Source: Gemmatimonadota bacterium
GTDB taxonomy: Bacteria; Gemmatimonadota; Gemmatimonadetes; Gemmatimonadales; Gemmatimonadaceae
DNA length: 64,000 nt
Assembly: GCA_040389905.1 (NCBI GenBank)
Contig: JAZJZK010000008.1
Coordinates: forward strand, 32,001 to 96,000
Direction of reading: 5' to 3'
Below, piece by piece: positions 636 through 11,380 of the stretch. Both the position numbers and the translations under genes were made by a program. Under the pieces are notes generated by a model that did no database searches, was not told the origin of the DNA, and worked only from the letters and a program-made list of their open reading frames with translations. The first letter of the stretch is position 1. Every line of letters starts with the position of its first letter.

Positions 636-663
636 TTGACTTGTCCGCAGTCGCGGCCATATT
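636..663 (+). promoter_or_regulatory. Putative sigma-70 promoter for the leader peptide/ATP-grasp operon
   Basis: TTGACT (636-641), 16-nt spacer, CATATT (658-663). Predicted start site falls at or near the ATG at 670. Confidence 0.55.
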
Positions 664-669
664 CGTCTT

Positions 670-756
670 ATGACTTCACGAGCCGCGCAGTGTATGTGTC
701 CCGTTTGTATGCCCATGTCGCGTATGCGACAGGGGATCGGTGACGCGCACTCGTAA
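670..756 (+). CDS. Cys/Met-rich leader peptide (28 aa, MTSRAAQCMCPVCMPMSRMRQGIGDAHS), putative attenuator peptide
   Basis: Translated by hand; below the ORF-track cutoff. 3 Cys (all TGT) and 4 internal Met fall in codons 8-19. An intrinsic terminator follows. Confidence 0.7.
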   Translation: MTSRAAQCMCPVCMPMSRMRQGIGDAHS

Positions 757-783
757 GTCTCGACGTTAGCACACGTCGCCGAC

Positions 784-822
784 GCGCCCCGATCCCACGC
801 GGATCGGGGCGCTCTCTTTTTC
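784..822 (+). terminator. Intrinsic terminator (attenuator) in the operon leader
   Basis: Perfect 12-bp stem GCGCCCCGATCC (784-795) / GGATCGGGGCGC (801-812), loop CACGC, then TCTCTTTTT. Confidence 0.85.
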
Positions 823-896
823 TGGGCAACTTGGGATTCGCGAACGGATCGAGGTGCGGAGCGACACACCGTTCCCCTCTCCAAGGATGCCCAGCA

Positions 897-1868
897 ATGC
901 GACCGATCGCCGTCTACCACGAGCACCCCGACTGGTTCAAGCCACTCTTCGCCGAGCTCGAGCGACGCGGACTTCCGTACGTCCGCCTCGATGCCTCATC
1001 GCACCGGTACGACCCCGCCGAGCGGACGTCGCCCTATTCGCTTGTGGTCAACCGCGCGAGTCCGTCGGCGTATCTGCGCGGGCATGCCGCCTCTACCTTC
1101 CACACGTTGCACTGGCTCCGCCACCTCGAGCGCGTCGGCACGCCCGTCATCAACGGCAGCAAGACGTACGGTTACGAGCTCTCCAAGGCGTCACAGGCCG
1201 ATGCACTTGCGGAACTCGGCATTCCCGTACCGCGATCGGTGGTCATCAACAATCCCGATCAAGCCGTACGCGCAGCGATCGATCTGCGCTATCCCGTTCT
1301 GGTCAAGGCAAACATCGGTGGCAGTGGCGCCGGCATCACCAAATACGAGACGGCCGCTGCGCTCGAAGCCGCCGTCGCACGCGGTGACGTGAACCTCGGC
1401 GTCGACGGCGTGGCGCTGGTGCAGGAAGCCGCACCACTTCGCGACGGTCACATCACCCGCGTCGAGACACTCGACGGCAACTATCTCTATGCCATCAACG
1501 TGTATCCAGCCATCGGCTCGTTCGATCTCTGTCCTGCCGACGCCTGCCAGACGACAACTGGCGTCGAGTTGGTGGGCGCCGCCTGCGCGGTCGATGCCGT
1601 GAAGAGCGGTCTTCGCGTCGAGGGGTACACGCCTCCGACGGAGATCATCGAGCAGGTCGAGCGTATCTCACGCTTTACGGGGCTCGATATCGGCGGCATC
1701 GAATACTTGATCGATGACCGCGACGGCAAGCCCTACTTCTACGACGTCAACGCCCTTTCCAACTTCGTCGCCGACGCACCGAACGTCATCGGCTTCGATC
1801 CGTGGGTGAACTTCGTGGACTACATCGAGGCCCGCATCGCGGATGCGCGCACCGAGGTCGCGGCATGA
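897..1868 (+). CDS. RimK/glutathione-synthase-like ATP-grasp ligase
   Basis: YPVLVKANIGGSGAGI, LVQE, GGIEY and YDVNALSNF ATP-grasp motifs. Start moved to ATG 897 behind AAGGA. Confidence 0.8.
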   Translation: MRPIAVYHEHPDWFKPLFAELERRGLPYVRLDASSHRYDPAERTSPYSLVVNRASPSAYLRGHAASTFHTLHWLRHLERVGTPVINGSKTYGYELSKASQADALAELGIPVPRSVVINNPDQAVRAAIDLRYPVLVKANIGGSGAGITKYETAAALEAAVARGDVNLGVDGVALVQEAAPLRDGHITRVETLDGNYLYAINVYPAIGSFDLCPADACQTTTGVELVGAACAVDAVKSGLRVEGYTPPTEIIEQVERISRFTGLDIGGIEYLIDDRDGKPYFYDVNALSNFVADAPNVIGFDPWVNFVDYIEARIADARTEVAA

Positions 1869-2953
1869 GTGCAACCATTGCTCCCGAGCGCCGATCAGCG
1901 AGTCCAGGCGCCGAAGCCCCCAGTCGCATGCGCTTCGGCTACTGGCTTCCCGTGTTCGGTGGCTGGCTGCGCAACGTCGACGACGAACGCATGGACGCGA
2001 GTTGGAGCTACACTCGGCGGCTGGCGCAGCGCAGTGAGGAGATCGGCTTCGATCTTACACTGATTGCGGAATTGTTTCTCAACGACATCAAAGGTGCGGA
2101 CGCACCTGCGCTGGACGCATGGAGTACGGCAGCCGCGCTCGCCGCGGTCACGGAACGACTCGAGCTCATGGTGGCCGTCCGGCCGCAATACCATCCCCCC
2201 GCGCAGCTCGCCAAGCAGGCAGCGAACATCGATCAGATCTCCAACGGGCGCCTGGCGCTGAATGTCGTGAGCGCGTGGTGGGCCGACGAAGCACGTCGGT
2301 ACGGCGTGCATTTCGACAAGCACGACGACCGCTACGCGCGCACTGCCGAGTGGCTGGATGTGGTGAGTGGCGCATGGCGCGAATCGCGACTGACGCACAA
2401 GGGCAGCTACTACACGGTCGACGACCTCATCGTCGAGCCAAAGCCCGTCCGTCGTCCCGGACCGACGATCTACGCCGGTGGAGAATCGGAAACCGCAAAG
2501 AATCTCATCGCCAGCAAGTGCGACGCGTACGTCATGCACGGTGATCCCGTCGAACGGATCGCACCGAAGGTGACCGACATGCGCACACGGCGCGAGACCG
2601 CTGGTGGGCCCGCCATGGAGTTCGGCATGGCGGCATACGTCATCGTCAGGGAGAGCGAGGCGGACGCGGAACGCGAACGCGCGCGCATCACCAACGTGAC
2701 GGTGGGGTCACCCGGCTATCACAACTATCAGGATTGGCTGGCGAACACCCAACTCGAGCAGCGCGTCTCACTCGAGGACTACTCGGTCTCGAATCGCGGG
2801 CTGCGCGCGGGTCTCGTCGGCACGGCGGAACAGGTCGCCGATCAGATCCGCGGTTTTCAGGACGCGGGCATTGGCTTGCTGCTCCTGCAATGCAGCCCGC
2901 AACTCGAAGAGATGGAACGCTTCGCGGAGGAGGTCATGCCGTTGGTGAACTAG
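1865..2953 (+). CDS. LLM-class flavin-dependent monooxygenase (SsuD/SfnG-like, putative organosulfur utilisation)
   Basis: RFGYWLPVFGGW, LDAWSTAAALAAVTERLELMVAVRP, IDQISNGRLALNVV, IYAGGES, LVGTAEQVADQI. ATGA overlap with the upstream stop. Confidence 0.85.
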   Translation: MSATIAPERRSASPGAEAPSRMRFGYWLPVFGGWLRNVDDERMDASWSYTRRLAQRSEEIGFDLTLIAELFLNDIKGADAPALDAWSTAAALAAVTERLELMVAVRPQYHPPAQLAKQAANIDQISNGRLALNVVSAWWADEARRYGVHFDKHDDRYARTAEWLDVVSGAWRESRLTHKGSYYTVDDLIVEPKPVRRPGPTIYAGGESETAKNLIASKCDAYVMHGDPVERIAPKVTDMRTRRETAGGPAMEFGMAAYVIVRESEADAERERARITNVTVGSPGYHNYQDWLANTQLEQRVSLEDYSVSNRGLRAGLVGTAEQVADQIRGFQDAGIGLLLLQCSPQLEEMERFAEEVMPLVN

Positions 2954-2994: not shown

Positions 2995-4803
2995 ATGCGA
3001 ACTCTCCTCCGCTATCTCAAGCCGTACTGGCCGCTGGTCGTCCTGGCGCTCGTTCTCGCCACGATCAATCAGGTCTTTTCGCTGCTCGATCCGGCCATCC
3101 TGCGGCACATCGTCGACGACTACGCCTCCCAACGTGACAAGTACACGAAGGAGGAGTTCATCACGGGCATCGCGAAGTTGCTCGGCATGGCCGTCGGCGT
3201 GGCGTTCGTCAGCCGAGTGGCGAAGAACTTCCAGGATTATTTCCTGAATGTGGTAGTACAGCGAGTGGGCGCTGACCTGTATTCGGACGGCATCCGCCAC
3301 TCGCTCGCACTCCCCTTCCAGACCTTCGAGGATCAACGAAGCGGCGAGACGCTGGGCAAGCTCCAGAAAGTCCGCTCCGACACCGAGCGCTTCATCAACC
3401 AGTTCGTGAACTTCGTGTTCACCACCATCGTCGGCGTGGTGTTCGTGATGGTGTACTCATTCTCCGTGCACTGGTCCATCGGGCCGGCGTTCGTTCTGAC
3501 CGTTCCCGTGCTGGCGTTCATCAGCAACACCCTCAGCAAACGCGTCAAGGCGATTCAGAAGACCATCGTGAAGGAAACGACGGCCCTCGCCGGCGCCACC
3601 ACGGAATCGCTGCGCAACATCGAGTTGGTGAAGAGTCTTGGCCTCGCGAAACAGGAGGAGCTTCGCCTGAACGCCACGACGAACAAGATCCTTCAGCTCG
3701 AGCTGAAGAAGGTCCGATACATCCGATCCATCAGCTTCATCCAGGGCACGGCGGTGAACTTCATCCGCACCTGCATTCTCTTCCTCATGTTGTTCCTGAT
3801 CTTTCAGGGGAAGATGTCGGTGGGGCAGTACTTCTCGTTGATGATCTACAGCTTCTTCATTTTCGGACCGATGCAGGAGCTGGGCAACGTCGTCAACACG
3901 TTCCGCGAGACGGAGGCGTCGCTCGAGAACTTCGAGGCGATCTTCCGTATTCCCGTCGACCCGAAACCGGTCAACCCGGTTCCGATCGACGACCTCCATA
4001 CGTTCTCGTTCACGGATGTGAGCTTCACGCATGCGACGGCCACCGGCCCTGCGCTCGCCGATGTGTCGTTCGAGGCGCACAGGGGACAGACGCTCGCGTT
4101 CGTCGGACCGTCCGGCGCGGGGAAGACCACGCTCGTGAAGCTGCTCGTCGGACTCTATCGGCCGAGTCACGGGCAGATCCTGTATAACGGCATTTCGAGC
4201 GAGCGCATCGACCTGGACCGATTCCGTGAACGTATCGGCTTCGTGACGCAGGATGCGCAGCTCTTCAGCGGAACGATCCGCGAAAACCTGCTCTTCGTGC
4301 GACCGGACGCGACTGATGAGCAGTGTCTCGCGGTGATGAAGCGCGCGGCGGCGAACTCGCTGCTCAATCGGGCCGACAAGGGGCTCGACACCGTGATCGG
4401 CGAGGGCGGGATGAAGATTTCCGGCGGTGAGAAGCAACGCCTGTCGATTGCCCGTGCGCTCCTCCGCGACCCGCAACTCCTCGTCTTCGACGAGGCGACG
4501 AGCTCGCTCGACTCCCTCACCGAAGAGGAGATCAGTCGGACGATGCGCGACGTCTCCGAAACATCCGACGTGATCACGGTGCTGATTGCACACCGCCTGA
4601 GCACCGTTCTGCATGCCGATCAGATCTTCGTCCTGGAGCGTGGCCGAGTGATCGAGCAAGGACGCCACGACGAGTTGCTCGAGCGGAAGGGACTCTACTA
4701 CGCCATGTGGCGCCAGCAAGTCGGGGAGCGTCGGACGATTACCGCCACGGGACCTGCCGTCGCCGGAAAACCGCCGCTCTCGTCGGGCGCGATCGCCGGT
4801 TGA
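2995..4803 (+). CDS. ABC exporter, fused permease/ATP-binding protein
   Basis: N-terminal TM helices, Walker A GPSGAGKT, signature ISGGEKQR, Walker B LVFDEATS, H-loop IAHRLST. Confidence 0.92.
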   Translation: MRTLLRYLKPYWPLVVLALVLATINQVFSLLDPAILRHIVDDYASQRDKYTKEEFITGIAKLLGMAVGVAFVSRVAKNFQDYFLNVVVQRVGADLYSDGIRHSLALPFQTFEDQRSGETLGKLQKVRSDTERFINQFVNFVFTTIVGVVFVMVYSFSVHWSIGPAFVLTVPVLAFISNTLSKRVKAIQKTIVKETTALAGATTESLRNIELVKSLGLAKQEELRLNATTNKILQLELKKVRYIRSISFIQGTAVNFIRTCILFLMLFLIFQGKMSVGQYFSLMIYSFFIFGPMQELGNVVNTFRETEASLENFEAIFRIPVDPKPVNPVPIDDLHTFSFTDVSFTHATATGPALADVSFEAHRGQTLAFVGPSGAGKTTLVKLLVGLYRPSHGQILYNGISSERIDLDRFRERIGFVTQDAQLFSGTIRENLLFVRPDATDEQCLAVMKRAAANSLLNRADKGLDTVIGEGGMKISGGEKQRLSIARALLRDPQLLVFDEATSSLDSLTEEEISRTMRDVSETSDVITVLIAHRLSTVLHADQIFVLERGRVIEQGRHDELLERKGLYYAMWRQQVGERRTITATGPAVAGKPPLSSGAIAG

Positions 4804-6462: not shown

Positions 6463-7572
6463 TCAATCCAAAAGCGCGTCAAACACCGCGTCGCACGCGC
6501 CGAGGCACCGCTCCAGCCCCTCGAGCGTGTGATCCCCCATGTGCCCGATTCGCACTGACGTCTCCTTGTTCTTCCCGTACCCGCTGCCAATCGTAAATCC
6601 TCGCTCCGCCACCGCACGCAACACCGTCGATGACGTCAGCGACGGGGGAAGCACGATACTCGTGACACTTGGCGAGCGATGCCCCGGCCCAGCCGCGATG
6701 CTCAGTGCTCCTTCATGACGCGCTGACGACGCGTCCACCCACGCGTACGTTCGCTCCGCCATCGCCTTATGTCGCGCCCAGCGAACCGGCATCGTCTCTT
6801 CCGCGATCGCGGCGAGCTGCACATCCGCGGCGTAAAAGAGCGGAAGAGCCGGTGTGTTCGGTGTCTGATGCTTGACGGCGTAGGCGTCGAACTCCACGAC
6901 ATCGAAGTACAGGCCGCGGCGGTCCTGCGAACGCGCACTGTCGATGAACGCCGGCGTGGCCGCGGCGAACGCGAGACCGGGCGGCAGGGCGAGTGCCTTC
7001 TGTGAACCGGTGAGCGCGAAGTCGAGCTGCCAATCATCGAATCGAAGTTCTGCGGCACCGATGCCCGTCACAGAATCGACGAGGCACACCGCACCGTGCT
7101 CGTGTGCGAGCCGCGTGACGGCGCGGACGTCAGTCAGCGCGCCGGTTGACGTCTCCGAATGCGCGACGGTTACGGCCGCATACTCGCGCGCGCTGAGGCG
7201 AATGGTCAACTCATCCAGGTCGACCGTGCTCCCCCAGGGAATGTCGATCACGACGGTCTCGCGACCACACGCGGTCGCGATCGCCGCGAAGCGTGCGGAA
7301 AACGCACCATTGACGATGGAGAGCACGCGACCAGCGGGCGCGCAGCGAATGGCGGATTCCATCAGCCCGGTCGCCGATGAACTGCTGACATACACCGGGC
7401 GCGCCGTCCCGAAGATATGTTGGAGGGATGTCTGGATTCGTGCATACATCGACTCGAACGCAGGACCGCGGTGCGCGATCATCGGCTGTGTCATTGCATC
7501 GAGCACGACCTGTCGCACTTCGGTGGGACCAGGGAAGAAAAACGTGCCCTGCGTAAGGAGTGGCATGGTCAT
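6463..7572 (-). CDS. Class V PLP aminotransferase (serine-pyruvate/alanine-glyoxylate type; likely phosphoserine aminotransferase role)
   Basis: PGPT, HSETSTG, LVDSVTG, TGSQKAL (PLP lysine), RIGHMG. Last gene of the serA operon. Confidence 0.85.
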   Translation of the reverse strand: MTMPLLTQGTFFFPGPTEVRQVVLDAMTQPMIAHRGPAFESMYARIQTSLQHIFGTARPVYVSSSSATGLMESAIRCAPAGRVLSIVNGAFSARFAAIATACGRETVVIDIPWGSTVDLDELTIRLSAREYAAVTVAHSETSTGALTDVRAVTRLAHEHGAVCLVDSVTGIGAAELRFDDWQLDFALTGSQKALALPPGLAFAAATPAFIDSARSQDRRGLYFDVVEFDAYAVKHQTPNTPALPLFYAADVQLAAIAEETMPVRWARHKAMAERTYAWVDASSARHEGALSIAAGPGHRSPSVTSIVLPPSLTSSTVLRAVAERGFTIGSGYGKNKETSVRIGHMGDHTLEGLERCLGACDAVFDALLD

Positions 7573-8219
7573 GCGAGAACGAGCTCCACGAGCTGATCGA
7601 ACGATTCAAGGACCACATCGGCCAGTTCCACGACCTGGTCACGATGCACGAAGCCGGTAAAGGCGGCAAAAGCGTCAACAGCGGGTCGCATCGCAAGGTC
7701 GGTGACACCATCACCCATCGCAAGCACGCGCGGCGGCAGGCCGATCGACTCCGCGACGGCGCGCTTGCCCGTGGCGGTTGCGAGGGGTGAGTCTGACTCG
7801 AAGCCGATGAACTCCCCCAGCTCGTCGAACCGTGTCGAGACGGCATAGACATCGCGCCGCGGTATGCCGAGCCGAAGCGCGACCGGCAGGATCGCCTCGC
7901 GAATGCCGCCGCTCACCAGCACGACGCGACGCTCCGCTGCCACCAGCCTCCGCACGGCGTCTTCCGCACCAGGCGCCAACGTCTCTGCATACGCGTTGGC
8001 CAGCGCTGCGATATCGTCCCACGTGGGATGCACGAGCGCCAGCCGCTCCGCATAAACGTTCTCGAGCGCGATCTCTCCCCGCATTGCGCGATCGGTCAGT
8101 TTCGCAACGTGATCACACACCTCCGCACCACGACGACGCGCGAGCCAATCGATGCCTTCCACGCGACACAGCGTGGAATCGACGTCGAGGATGACACTCG
8201 CGAACCCGTTGAGGCTCAC
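7569..8219 (-). CDS. serB: Phosphoserine phosphatase, HAD-IB family
   Basis: HAD motif I DVDST, LVSGG, K, GDGVTD. Co-operonic with serA. Confidence 0.8.
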   Translation of the reverse strand: MSLNGFASVILDVDSTLCRVEGIDWLARRRGAEVCDHVAKLTDRAMRGEIALENVYAERLALVHPTWDDIAALANAYAETLAPGAEDAVRRLVAAERRVVLVSGGIREAILPVALRLGIPRRDVYAVSTRFDELGEFIGFESDSPLATATGKRAVAESIGLPPRVLAMGDGVTDLAMRPAVDAFAAFTGFVHRDQVVELADVVLESFDQLVELVLA

Positions 8220-9598
8220 AGCACGTTACCTGGCGCGAGAATGCCCGTCGGATCGAGTTCCCGTTTCATGGCACTCATGGCGCGCATCTGCAGCGGCGAC
8301 ATCTGGAGGGGAAGCCATTTGCGCTTGATCTTCCCGATGCCGTGCTCCGCGGCGACTGTTCCACCCAATGCGATGACCTCACGCAGGGTGGCCTCGACAA
8401 CCCGTTCGATTCGCGCGAGCGCGACGGCGTCGTCGGCAATGAAGTTCTGGTGCGGGTGGCCATTGCCGGCATGCCCGTAGATGACGGCCTGTTCGATCCC
8501 TGCGTCTGTCGCAAGCGAACGCGCACGACCAATCGCTCGGCCAAGCTGGGCATATGGCACGGCCCAGTCGGTCGACACCTTCCGTCCACCGTGCGCACGC
8601 CGCGCCCCTCCACGCTCATTCATGTGCGCGGGTACGGCGTGCCGGACCCGGCGCGCCTCGCGAAGCGCCGCTTCTCCCTCATAGACGCGAACGTCGTCGA
8701 CGATCGCGCCGTGCGCCTGGGCGAGCGAGAGCCACTCGTCCAGGGCAGGCTCCGCTCCACGAGAAGGCACCTCCTCAACGTACACGAACGCTGCTGCTCC
8801 GAGCGCCCATTCCGGCGTCCCCTCGGCATCGCGCGCGATGCCCAACGCGAGAATGTCGAAGTACTCGAGGCATCTCGGATGAACGCCGGCTCCCCGCCGC
8901 GCTGCGACGACGAATTCCAGGGCGGCATGCTCCGTTGCGAAGGGGATCGAAAGGCCGACCACATGGTCCGGCAGCGGCAGGAGTCCGAGCTCGGCTTCAA
9001 CGATGACACCGAGCGTTCCCTCGCTGCCGATGAACCAATCCACAGGATCATGTGCAAACGCGTAGCCGACGGTGTTCTTTTCCAGCGCGGTCCGCCGCAG
9101 ATCGACGAACGACCCATCGGCGAGTGCGACCTTGAGCGCGCGCACGTGCGGACGTGTTGCGCCGTAACGCAACGACCGTGCGCCGGATGCATTGCAGGCG
9201 ATCGCGCCGCCAATCGTGCACTCATCTTCGCTCGTTGGATCGGGGGCGAAGAGCAGATCGTGCTCCGCGCACAAACGCTTCATGTCGCCGACGAGGACTC
9301 CCGGCTCGACGCGGATCGTTCGTGCGCGCGGATCGATGTCGATCACGCGCTGCATCGCGCGCGTCGACATGAGGAGGCCGACGTCGGTGATGGACGCCCC
9401 GGTCGTACTCGTCTGCCCGCCCGCAGGCGTGACGGGTGTGTTCGACGCATGAGCTTCCGCCAGCAACGCGGAGACTTCACCCGCAGACGCAGGTCTCGCC
9501 ACGCCTTCGGGAACGAGCACCAATCCCGAGACGTCCGACGCGTACGCGCGGCGAACCTCTTCGTCGCGCGCGATAGAAGGAATACCGAGGTGTGTCAC
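8216..9598 (-). CDS. FAD-binding oxidoreductase, GlcD/D-2-hydroxyacid dehydrogenase family
   Basis: PAGGQTS, CTIGGAIACNASG, FIGSEGTLG, GHAGNGHPH, AEHGIG. Start placed at GTG 9598 because the longer track N-terminus runs through a repeat element. Confidence 0.85.
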   Translation of the reverse strand: MTHLGIPSIARDEEVRRAYASDVSGLVLVPEGVARPASAGEVSALLAEAHASNTPVTPAGGQTSTTGASITDVGLLMSTRAMQRVIDIDPRARTIRVEPGVLVGDMKRLCAEHDLLFAPDPTSEDECTIGGAIACNASGARSLRYGATRPHVRALKVALADGSFVDLRRTALEKNTVGYAFAHDPVDWFIGSEGTLGVIVEAELGLLPLPDHVVGLSIPFATEHAALEFVVAARRGAGVHPRCLEYFDILALGIARDAEGTPEWALGAAAFVYVEEVPSRGAEPALDEWLSLAQAHGAIVDDVRVYEGEAALREARRVRHAVPAHMNERGGARRAHGGRKVSTDWAVPYAQLGRAIGRARSLATDAGIEQAVIYGHAGNGHPHQNFIADDAVALARIERVVEATLREVIALGGTVAAEHGIGKIKRKWLPLQMSPLQMRAMSAMKRELDPTGILAPGNVL

Positions 9599-9603
9599 GA
9601 CGC

Positions 9604-9757
9604 TGTCATCCCGAGCGAGCGCAGCAGCCTGCCCTCGAGGAGCGCGAGCGACGAAGGGAGGGATCTGCACCTGCCGTTACGCTCCTTTTGTCGCCTGCCT
9701 GCCCTCGAGGAGCGCAAGCGACGAAGGGAGCGAAGCGAAGGGCCTGCACCTGCTGTT
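9604..9757. repeat. Two tandem REP-like elements, each carrying a nested 34-bp element
   Basis: GCCTGCCCTCGAGGAGCGC(G/A)AGCGACGAAGGGAG at 9627-9660 and 9697-9730 (1 mismatch). Both units end in CTGCACCTGCYGTT. Confidence 0.8.
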
Positions 9758-9775
9758 GCCCAGTTGGATGTGGCA

Positions 9776-11380
9776 TCACGCGCGGAAGTGAACGACCGTT
9801 GCCGACAGGATATCAGGCAACTTGAGGAGCGCGTCGCGAACGCCGCTGCCGACGCTCCCATCCACGCTGATTGCCGCGAGCGCCTCCCCACCCTGCGCGA
9901 GCCGCGCCTGGTGATACTCGGCGATGTTGACGCCGGCGTCGCCGAGGAGCGTGCCGACGCGGCCGATGACCCCTGGGACGTCGTGGTTCGTGAGAATGAC
10001 GAGCGTATCACGCGGCGCAACGTCCACATGAAATCCGCCGATTCTCGTGAGGCGACCCGCCGATCCCTCGGGGGCCACGCCGGCCACCGCAAGCTCCTGC
10101 ATGCCTCCACTGAGGCTGACTTGGACGCCGAAGGGGCCAAGGGACTCGCTCTTCGAGCACGAGAGCTCCATGCCGCGTGCCTCGGCGAGCGAGCGGGCAT
10201 TGATGAGGTTGAGCCGCTCCACCTCGATGGCGCCCTCGAGCACGCCGGCCGCCGCCGCCGCCAGGAGCGCCGCCGATGCACTCGCGATCTCCGAGCCGCA
10301 CCGCAGCGACACGCGCTGCACGACCCGCGCTCCGCGGTCCGCGAGGATCGCTCGCGCCACGGCGGCCGCGCGTCGCGTGACGAGAAGCGCGGACTGGAGT
10401 TCCCGCCAGTCACCGATTCCAGCCCCTGCGACATTGATCGATCGCGAGAGCTCATCGTGCAGCAATGCGTCGCGCACCGCGGCGCAGGCATCGACGGCGA
10501 CGTTGCGCTGCGCTTCCGCGCTCGACGCACCGATGTGCGGTGTCAGCAGCGTGTTCGGCGCGCGGCGCAGCGGGTGGTCGGCCGCCAGCGGTTCCTTGCT
10601 GAAGGCATCGACGATTGCGCCACGGAGTTGGCCACTCTCGAGCGCGCTGACCAGCGCCGCCTCCTCAATGATCCCACCACGCGCCATGTTGACCGCGATG
10701 GCGCCACCCTTGAGTCGCGCTAGCTCGCGCTTGCCGATCATGCCATGTGTTTCTTCCGTCAGCGGCGTGTGCACCGTGAGAAAATCTGCGACGTCGAGCC
10801 CCTCTTCCAGCGTGGCGAGCTTCCGGATGCGCAATGCGTGAAAGCGCTCATCGGCGATGTAGGGATCGAAGCCGGCGACATCCATGCCGAACGCGAGTGC
10901 GCGTGTTGCAATCTCTCCGCCGATGCGACCGACTCCGACGATGACGAGCGTCTTGCCCTTGAGCTCCGTACCGAGGAGTTGCGAACGATCCCAGCGGCCG
11001 TCGCGCATCGAGCTAGCTGCCTGCGGCAGGTGTCGCAGCAGGCCGATGACCGCACCGAAGAACAATTCGACCACGGCGATCGTATTGCCCGCGGGCGCAT
11101 TGATGACCGCAATGCCGAGTGCCGTTGCCGCTTCGATGGCGATGTTGTCCACGCCGACGCCGGCGCGGCCGACGACTCGGAGTCGCTTTGCGCGAGCGAG
11201 AAGTTCCGCCGTGATGCGAGTGGCGCTGCGCCCCACAAACGCGTCATAGTCGCCGATGCGCTCGAGGAGTTCAGCGGGTGGCAGCGTTGGAAGCTCGTCG
11301 ACGACGAACGACGGTTCGGCGGTGAGCAGGGCGACGCCATCGGCGTCGATGTCATCCGTAACGAGTATTCTGTAAGACAA
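9776..11380 (-). CDS. serA: D-3-phosphoglycerate dehydrogenase (long type I, C-terminal ACT domain)
   Basis: GRAGVGVDNI, GVGRIG, VNMARGGI, TPHIGAS, and ACT domain NHDVPGVIGRVGTLLG. Confidence 0.95.
   Translation of the reverse strand: MSYRILVTDDIDADGVALLTAEPSFVVDELPTLPPAELLERIGDYDAFVGRSATRITAELLARAKRLRVVGRAGVGVDNIAIEAATALGIAVINAPAGNTIAVVELFFGAVIGLLRHLPQAASSMRDGRWDRSQLLGTELKGKTLVIVGVGRIGGEIATRALAFGMDVAGFDPYIADERFHALRIRKLATLEEGLDVADFLTVHTPLTEETHGMIGKRELARLKGGAIAVNMARGGIIEEAALVSALESGQLRGAIVDAFSKEPLAADHPLRRAPNTLLTPHIGASSAEAQRNVAVDACAAVRDALLHDELSRSINVAGAGIGDWRELQSALLVTRRAAAVARAILADRGARVVQRVSLRCGSEIASASAALLAAAAAGVLEGAIEVERLNLINARSLAEARGMELSCSKSESLGPFGVQVSLSGGMQELAVAGVAPEGSAGRLTRIGGFHVDVAPRDTLVILTNHDVPGVIGRVGTLLGDAGVNIAEYHQARLAQGGEALAAISVDGSVGSGVRDALLKLPDILSATVVHFRA

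Follow-up and report, generated by a model that had tools for sequence, protein, structure and literature searches.

A candidate leader upstream of an ATP-grasp gene

In the 64,000-nucleotide stretch of Gemmatimonadota DNA analysed here (the window), a short reading frame with a run of cysteine and methionine codons, followed by a hairpin and a U-rich tract, lies upstream of an operon for a RimK-like ATP-grasp protein and an LLM-class flavin monooxygenase. The locus raises the question of whether these parts form a regulatory leader, by what route such a leader would act and which amino acids it would sense. Judged from its sequence and from that of its relatives, the element is very probably a leaderless, ribosome-mediated transcription attenuator that senses Cys and probably Met. 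It is compact (190 nt), and its parts and those of the operon are as follows, in window coordinates.

636..641, plus strand: -35 box TTGACT of the predicted leader promoter
658..663, plus strand: -10 box CATATT, separated from the -35 box by a 16-nt spacer; predicted transcription start at 670
670..756, plus strand: leader ORF of 28 codons, MTSRAAQCMCPVCMPMSRMRQGIGDAHS, with its ATG six bases past the -10 box
691..726, plus strand: Cys/Met sensor tract read from the sequence, codons 8-19, with 3 Cys and 4 Met
712..734, plus strand: conserved leader hairpin (1:2), identified by covariation; putative role
733..748, plus strand: region 2, the 5' strand of the antiterminator predicted by fold models; partner 784-796
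757..783, plus strand: extra hairpin between stop codon and terminator, within the antiterminator loop (-8.7 kcal/mol)
784..812, plus strand: intrinsic-terminator stem (3:4) of 12 bp (-26.1 kcal/mol), covarying
813..822, plus strand: U-rich tract TCTCTTTTTC, from the sequence
822..894, plus strand: long predicted stem over the ATP-grasp ribosome-binding site (Shine-Dalgarno sequence unpaired 0.21 in both states)
897..1868, plus strand: RimK-like ATP-grasp protein, first gene of the operon (RimK family 55.5 bits, cut-off 143.4)
1865..2953, plus strand: LLM-class flavin monooxygenase (PF00296, 200 bits; nearest named families SfnG/SsuD)

A preliminary description of this DNA had reported the TTGACT-N16-CATATT promoter match, the 28-aa Cys/Met reading frame and the 12-bp terminator with its U-tract, and each was present where it had been placed. 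No Shine-Dalgarno (SD) sequence precedes the ATG at 670 in the window, also as described. The complementarity between GGGATCGG at 733-740 and CCGATCCC at 789-796 is exact, and region 2 was found to run on to 748. A hairpin resembling that at 757-783 is also visible among same-genus relatives.

Taken by itself, the window sequence gave one promoter match against 0.4 in shuffles and one terminator match against 1.1 in shuffles, both at chance level. The fold of 670-830, one of the checks proposed in the preliminary description, was better than that of 200 out of 200 shuffles (z -3.9). An Rfam search of positions 500-1000 (E<=10) returned no meaningful match, the SAM-II aptamer (RF00521) included. 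On this sequence evidence, the above-chance standing of the element rests on its conservation in relatives.

Conservation of the element with the ATP-grasp gene

Two ATP-grasp protein searches yielded 106 loci, 85 of them non-redundant, and 84 were retained after one cut at the gene start was dropped; the relatives at these loci belong to the Gemmatimonadaceae/Gemmatimonadota. A Cys/Met-rich short ORF followed by a terminator was identified in 59 of the 84 upstream regions, the window included (53 by a fixed rule and 6 added by eye), these genomes being kin so that the counts do not represent independent events. The remaining 25 regions comprise 12 with a SAM-II-like motif instead of the leader, 3 that are truncated (the terminator still visible in 2), 5 in which the leader has been lost or replaced (L017, unpublished genome G012, among them), 3 in which an FMN-reductase gene comes first and the leader is placed before that gene, and 2 of other context. 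Within the genus, the leader is gone or has been swapped for repeat-like sequence upstream of the ATP-grasp gene in L003, L013, L044 and L067, with terminator remnants in L044 and L067.

In a draw of genomes across the phylum, the ATP-grasp gene was present in 82 of 351 (the unpublished G200 and G225 in the tally). Among 71 loci of this draw, a Cys/Met-rich short ORF was found by rule in 31 non-duplicates, a few of them doubtful, and a SAM-II-like pattern in 15; the short ORFs extend to other families of the class. An RNA model built from the alignment matched 14 of the 29 loci of the draw on which it was tested. Some short terminator-bearing leaders, in L176 and L185 (before an FMN-reductase gene), L197 and L233, fit neither the Cys/Met ORF rule nor the SAM-II pattern, and these possibly represent another type of regulator. 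At L032:1237-3150 the ATP-grasp frame is apparently joined to an unrelated N-terminal region, by fusion or misassembly.

Predicted leaderless start and reading frame

The promoter-like spacing seen in the window recurs in its relatives, with TTGAC 34-37 nt ahead of the start in 48 of 59 leaders (the starts were partly chosen by this motif) as against 0.37% of genomic ATGs. Only 1 of the 59 leaders contains an SD-like word, and positions -13 to -7 of the relatives' leaders are A/T-biased. Three of the 11 leaders lacking the TTGAC motif sit behind a SAM-II riboswitch. Promoter-defined starts were found for 44 of the 48 aligned leaders, and all 44 are in frame with the conserved hairpin; the start-to-hairpin distances fall into eight spacings of 33 to 54 nt, each a multiple of 3. 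This agreement of frame over eight spacings is the signature of an ORF that is translated and leaderless, and the leader mRNA of the window is predicted to start at 670 in the same manner.

RNA structure and the predicted antiterminator

Covariation was assessed on an alignment of 48 sequences, five divergent leaders being excluded. Both-side changes were found at 8 of the 9 pairs of the leader hairpin and at 6 of the 11 pairs of the terminator, in which 94.9% of cells are paired. Covariation as high as that of the hairpin and terminator was reached in 0 of 500 shuffles (which ignore kinship), and slid controls collapsed. Behind the terminator stem, 47 of 59 leaders have a stretch of 8 nt with at least 5 T, and the other 12 have 3-4 T.

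The pairing of region 2 with the 5' arm of the terminator was better than the shuffled mean in 51 of 53 leaders, and in 57 of 59 its complementarity also includes bases of the terminator loop. In the antiterminator columns, 81% of cells are paired, GAG/CTC and GGG/CCC were seen by eye to alternate between clades, and cognate pairing gave -21.6 kcal/mol as against -19.7 when swapped (a raw test that ignores kinship). Covariation of the antiterminator was not significant in sister pairs (12 better, 7 worse, 10 tied; p 0.36). The clade-level p values were 0.16 and 0.04, and a reversed control was just as stable; a Watson-Crick run test gave p 0.035 with two controls similar, and 2 sister pairs better and 7 worse; the column count was not above shuffles. 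The comparison of ATP-grasp upstream regions suggested in the preliminary description thus found the short ORF conserved and the terminator helix covarying, with no statistically established covariation of the antiterminator helix.

The dependence of the antiterminator on ribosome position was followed in fold models of the nascent RNA, in which the RNA ends at the terminator loop, so that the permissive window follows in part from geometry. With the ribosome on a Cys/Met codon, the antiterminator reached P>=0.5 in 57 of 59 leaders, and with the ribosome at the stop codon it stayed below 0.3 in all 59. In the window, its probability was 0.96-1.00 for a ribosome at any of codons 6-17 and had fallen to about 0 once codon 20 was reached. 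Once the RNA is complete, the window terminator forms with P=1.00 whatever the ribosome position; since the full terminator wins at equilibrium, the switch of an attenuator built in this way must be kinetic.

The hairpin at 712-734 had been proposed as a protector, and while covariation bears out the hairpin itself, the protector role is weak. Its overlap with the antiterminator amounts to only 2 nt, and its upper part persists alongside the antiterminator; without translation, the RNA folds so as to block the antiterminator in only 24 of the 59 leaders, and in the naked window RNA the antiterminator has P=0.85, with 0.02-0.14 when a ribosome stands on codon 2. The 712-734 hairpin is for these reasons not a reliable protector, and a function in pausing or timing is more likely than strict protection.

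SAM-II riboswitches and related leaders

The SAM-II riboswitch (RF00521) replaces the leader in the 12 regions mentioned above, 5 of them over the Rfam cut-off and the rest with the motif recognised by eye, and it passes the cut-off in one further, more distant locus. In L080, L081 and L085 it precedes the leader, in series. On a protein tree built by a quick method, the SAM label requires 7 changes, at least 4 of them forced by well-supported branches, and the two regulators have therefore been exchanged repeatedly. Such replacement of one sensing system by another is a known general phenomenon, according to the accessible text of PMC2965389.

A naive scan of the genome for further Cys/Met short ORFs returned mostly noise, while the RNA covariance model recovered a real paralogue in the same genome (G000:C66:3987-4129, 47 bits). 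It lies before a homoserine dehydrogenase gene and immediately follows a SAM-II-like motif (28.5 bits, under the cut-off), arranged as given here.

L112:1490-1810 (G000:C66 about 3975-4300), minus strand: tandem leader with promoter match, SAM-II-like motif and terminator, then leader ORF and terminator

The paralogue leader, which has no obvious SD behind the riboswitch, contains the run Met-x-Met-Cys-Met-Ser-Ile-Thr-Thr, and its predicted switch matches that of the window; its terminator is homologous to that of the window, and the tandem arrangement is conserved in the genus. The RNA model matches 18 of 19 homoserine dehydrogenase loci (Met/Thr/Ile leader), and many of these leaders have no Cys. 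A SAM-II-like motif was seen upstream by eye in 17 of the 19, and in 2 it is over the Rfam cut-off. A further SAM-II-like motif (22.8 bits, under the cut-off) lies directly before the methionine synthase gene at L117:1501-1573 (G000:C32:2251-2323, plus strand).

The phylum-wide search with the RNA model, in which 26 candidates were scored per genome (at least 37 of 141, plain terminators included), also matched Leu-rich leaders before leuA (three: L121, L125 and L143), a Phe/Tyr leader before DAHP synthase (L124), a Tyr-rich leader before phenylalanine hydroxylase (L130), which fits control by product, and a Met-rich leader before aspartate kinase (L122). Upstream of this last leader, SAM-II is over the cut-off (L165). 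The Leu-, Phe/Tyr- and Tyr-rich leaders before matching genes indicate that cognate attenuators are used in this phylum. On the whole, we lean towards the view that Gemmatimonadota attenuators read Met plus Cys on elongator Met codons and swap or stack with SAM-II as a two-input gate. Such a gate would combine low SAM with uncharged Met/Cys-tRNA, and would act on sulfur-scavenging and homoserine genes.

The downstream operon

The preliminary description had called the operon SsuD/SfnG-like. These are indeed the nearest named families of the monooxygenase, but against the NCBIfam equivalogs it scores below both cut-offs (SfnG 237.5 bits, cut-off 382.95; SsuD 175.8, cut-off 518.2). Among solved chains, 3RAO and 8VW6 are the nearest to it, and in the accessible text of PMC11588060 the former is named as the structure closest to SfnG. 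An FMN-reductase gene is co-located in certain relatives, with a Cys-rich leader before it where it comes first; no SsuE-like reductase over the cut-off was found in the genome of the window, which is 85% complete. A role of the operon in sulfur metabolism is probable, on the basis of family resemblance and of the regulators. For the ATP-grasp protein, homologue names are generic and PDB matches weak.

An orthologue of the ATP-grasp gene occurs on a Spirosoma plasmid (L168:6989-12221; NZ_CP089539.1) together with two amino-acid permeases and an LLM gene, a context hinting at an imported amino-acid-like substrate; its upstream region has no Rfam match. Elsewhere in the window (6463-11380, minus strand) there are genes which, from their translations, we take to be phosphoglycerate dehydrogenase-, FAD-linked oxidase-, phosphoserine phosphatase- and aminotransferase-like, and these read like a serine supply near the sulfur operon.

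Amino acids probably sensed by the leader

The 59 leaders contain 232 Cys and 209 internal Met codons (medians 3 and 4), compared with a genome background of 0.72% Cys and 1.99% Met codons. The preliminary description had noted that all Cys codons were TGT, and this is true of the three in the window; across the leaders, with 113 TGT and 119 TGC, it does not hold. As a feature of the leader the all-TGT pattern was rejected, since TGT at 49% of leader Cys codons as against 25% in the genome is a bias and not a rule. The number of Cys codons varies from 1 to 8 per leader, and their spacing is not fixed.

Cys sensing is the firmer of the two assignments, and an unlikely yet serious alternative is that the same attenuator senses Cys only, its Met codons having arisen without regulatory meaning by slippage in TG-rich repeats or from pairing in the hairpin. 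ATG and TGY do have TG in common, one Met codon position lies within the conserved hairpin (51 Met codons across the leaders), the distant leaders are richer in Cys than in Met and some have 0-1 internal Met, and the published relatives, tested or predicted, are Cys-only. However, the 678 codons upstream of the hairpin include 123 Met (18% vs 2%) beside 164 Cys, while the single-base neighbours Ile (8) and Val (13) are depleted, with Leu at 24. Met thus appears selected outside the hairpin, where pairing cannot explain its codons. Three leaders combine 1 Cys with 2-3 Met, the homoserine-dehydrogenase paralogue is often Met/Thr without Cys, and SAM-II, the alternative regulator, is a sensor of the Met pathway. 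The sensing of Met as well as Cys is consequently the reading we favour, with fair rather than full confidence.

Proposed mechanism and alternatives

The features found to be conserved are the ORF, with its frame and codon bias, the promoter-like distance to its start, both the hairpin and the terminator, and the complementarity between regions 2 and 3. The reading of the locus as a leaderless Cys/Met attenuator, already put forward in the preliminary description, is supported by the conservation of frame in 44 of 44 leaders, by the enrichment of Cys and Met codons, by the covarying hairpin and terminator, by the ribosome-position-dependent antiterminator models and by the occurrence of SAM-II at the same site. 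In the mechanism proposed, the first transcribed base would be the A of the ATG at 670, and ribosome loading would proceed without an SD. When Cys and Met are plentiful, the ribosome would pass codon 19 and cover 733-748, so that 784-812 folds and transcription terminates at the U tract. When they are short, it would stall at one of codons 8-16; the uncovered 733-748 would then pair with 784-796 as this emerges and ahead of synthesis of the 3' arm. The resulting antitermination would allow RNA polymerase to enter the ATP-grasp/monooxygenase operon, probably an FMNH2-dependent organosulfur-scavenging unit, and the trigger would be a shortage of charged tRNA-Cys and probably of elongator tRNA-Met too.

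A different route would be for the leader to control translation initiation of the ATP-grasp gene, or Rho-dependent termination, with the 784-812 stem as a relay and not an intrinsic terminator. The ATP-grasp SD does lie under a long stem, U tracts are weak in 12 of 59 leaders, and the 3' arm of the terminator can pair downstream (z<-2 in 12 of 40 regions, mostly of one clade). In the fold models, though, holding the 5' arm leaves the window SD at 0.21 both ways, and SD accessibility went up in 8 and down in 7 of 41 regions; the 47 leaders with at least 5 T in 8 nt and a stem that covaries like a terminator also argue against this route, which we regard as improbable. That a Cys-rich peptide adjoins an ATP-grasp enzyme, that ATP-grasp peptide maturases exist and that there is a weak TIGR04187 match could instead point to a trans-acting, metal-binding or modified peptide (a ligase substrate, for example) with an ordinary terminator behind it. 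Against such a peptide, Cys numbers range from 1 to 8 without fixed spacing, the ATP-grasp gene is kept where a SAM-II riboswitch replaces the ORF, and leaders of the same RNA architecture, with amino-acid runs that match the gene, are found before unrelated genes, leaving it very improbable. Finally, the upstream ORF (end 632) is on the same strand and has no terminator before 636, and the hairpin might be its terminator with the short ORF incidental. Yet promoter spacing and reading frame are conserved, and in L091-L094, whose upstream gene is divergent, the element still accompanies the ATP-grasp gene; it is therefore not the terminator of the upstream gene, an explanation to which we give almost no credence.

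A second, SD-unmasking layer acting through the terminator 3' arm was also considered beside the preferred attenuator and rejected for the window and overall. In L031, L069-L077, L083 and L103, the terminator 3' arm has a second downstream partner (z<-2 in most), and this pairing frees the SD in a few of the fold models. An extra translational layer is possible in this one clade according to these models.

Comparison with known systems

Genes for Met and Cys are usually described under repressors, SAM riboswitches or T-boxes. The tested Cys leader peptides act on translation, and in the family described here a predicted leaderless Cys/Met leader is followed by an intrinsic terminator. If the reading is right, elongator Met-tRNA would be added to the signals read by attenuation, and a phylum-wide attenuator family would alternate or stack with SAM-II on the same gene. 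The regulators would also assign an unannotated but widespread ATP-grasp and monooxygenase pair to sulfur metabolism.

Among titles and abstract openings, no relevant paper on a Gemmatimonad attenuator, leader peptide or uORF was found; with few subscription journals covered, these gave no report of a Gemmatimonadota Cys/Met attenuator family and no tested Met-codon terminator attenuator. Nor did titles and abstract openings yield a SAM-II and leader-peptide tandem. The supplementary motif tables of PMC8632094 and PMC2965389 could bear on the novelty of the family. The terms 'attenuat', 'uORF' and 'leader peptide' are absent from the accessible main text of a tandem-riboswitch review (PMC9481103), and Gemmatimonas is not mentioned in the accessible text of PMC8632094. 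The accessible part of PMC1262725 describes Cys leaders without terminators in Actinobacteria, with no structures found before methionine operons, and among the references of PMC4833913 is a 2014 paper about leader genes linked to sulfur.

Like the classical attenuators (trpL, hisL, leuL, thrL, pheL; summarised in PMC2965389 and PMC8079986), the window element has a short ORF in which regulatory codons are clustered, an alternative antiterminator (here predicted) with an intrinsic terminator, and downstream genes linked to the sensed amino acid (here probably, by family resemblance and regulators). It differs from them in being leaderless, in its predicted sensing of sulfur amino acids, in a 1:2 hairpin that only marginally excludes the antiterminator, in the extra hairpin of the antiterminator loop and in its target, a monooxygenase operon and not a standard biosynthetic one.

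The mycobacterial polycysteine sORFs of the Cys ribulon, as far as described in the accessible text of bioRxiv 10.1101/834739, are likewise leaderless, Cys-rich and first in their operons, with stalling predicted to turn on sulfur genes. According to the same text, Ms5788A acts translationally, by SD sequestration, and on Cys only, whereas the window has an intrinsic terminator with a predicted antiterminator, and its Met codons are enriched to a number similar to that of Cys. Unmasking of the SD by stalling, as in the mycobacterial type, was not seen in the fold model of the window (SD unchanged at 0.21).

The preliminary description knew of no dual Cys and Met attenuator with an intrinsic terminator in this lineage. 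A leaderless Cys/Met leader has been published for Streptomyces lividans, where metL, before metNIQ, has 29 aa, a mixed Cys/Met run and a methionine-related operon (PMC8079986, accessible text). In that text, metL is without a typical Rho-independent terminator and its mechanism is unclear; phylum and gene also differ from those of the window. uORFC-8-2, before cysS in the Rhodobacterales, likewise combines a predicted Cys-codon uORF with an intrinsic terminator, but as given in the accessible text of PMC8632094 it has two tandem Cys codons, no Met run and cysS as target, and is a prediction only.

Another related system is the SAM-II riboswitch (RF00521) with its terminator, which occupies the same site before the same gene in relatives and follows the same predicted logic, low flux through the sulfur/Met pathway turning the operon on. 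Where SAM-II binds a ligand, the window element is predicted to read tRNA charging via the ribosome.
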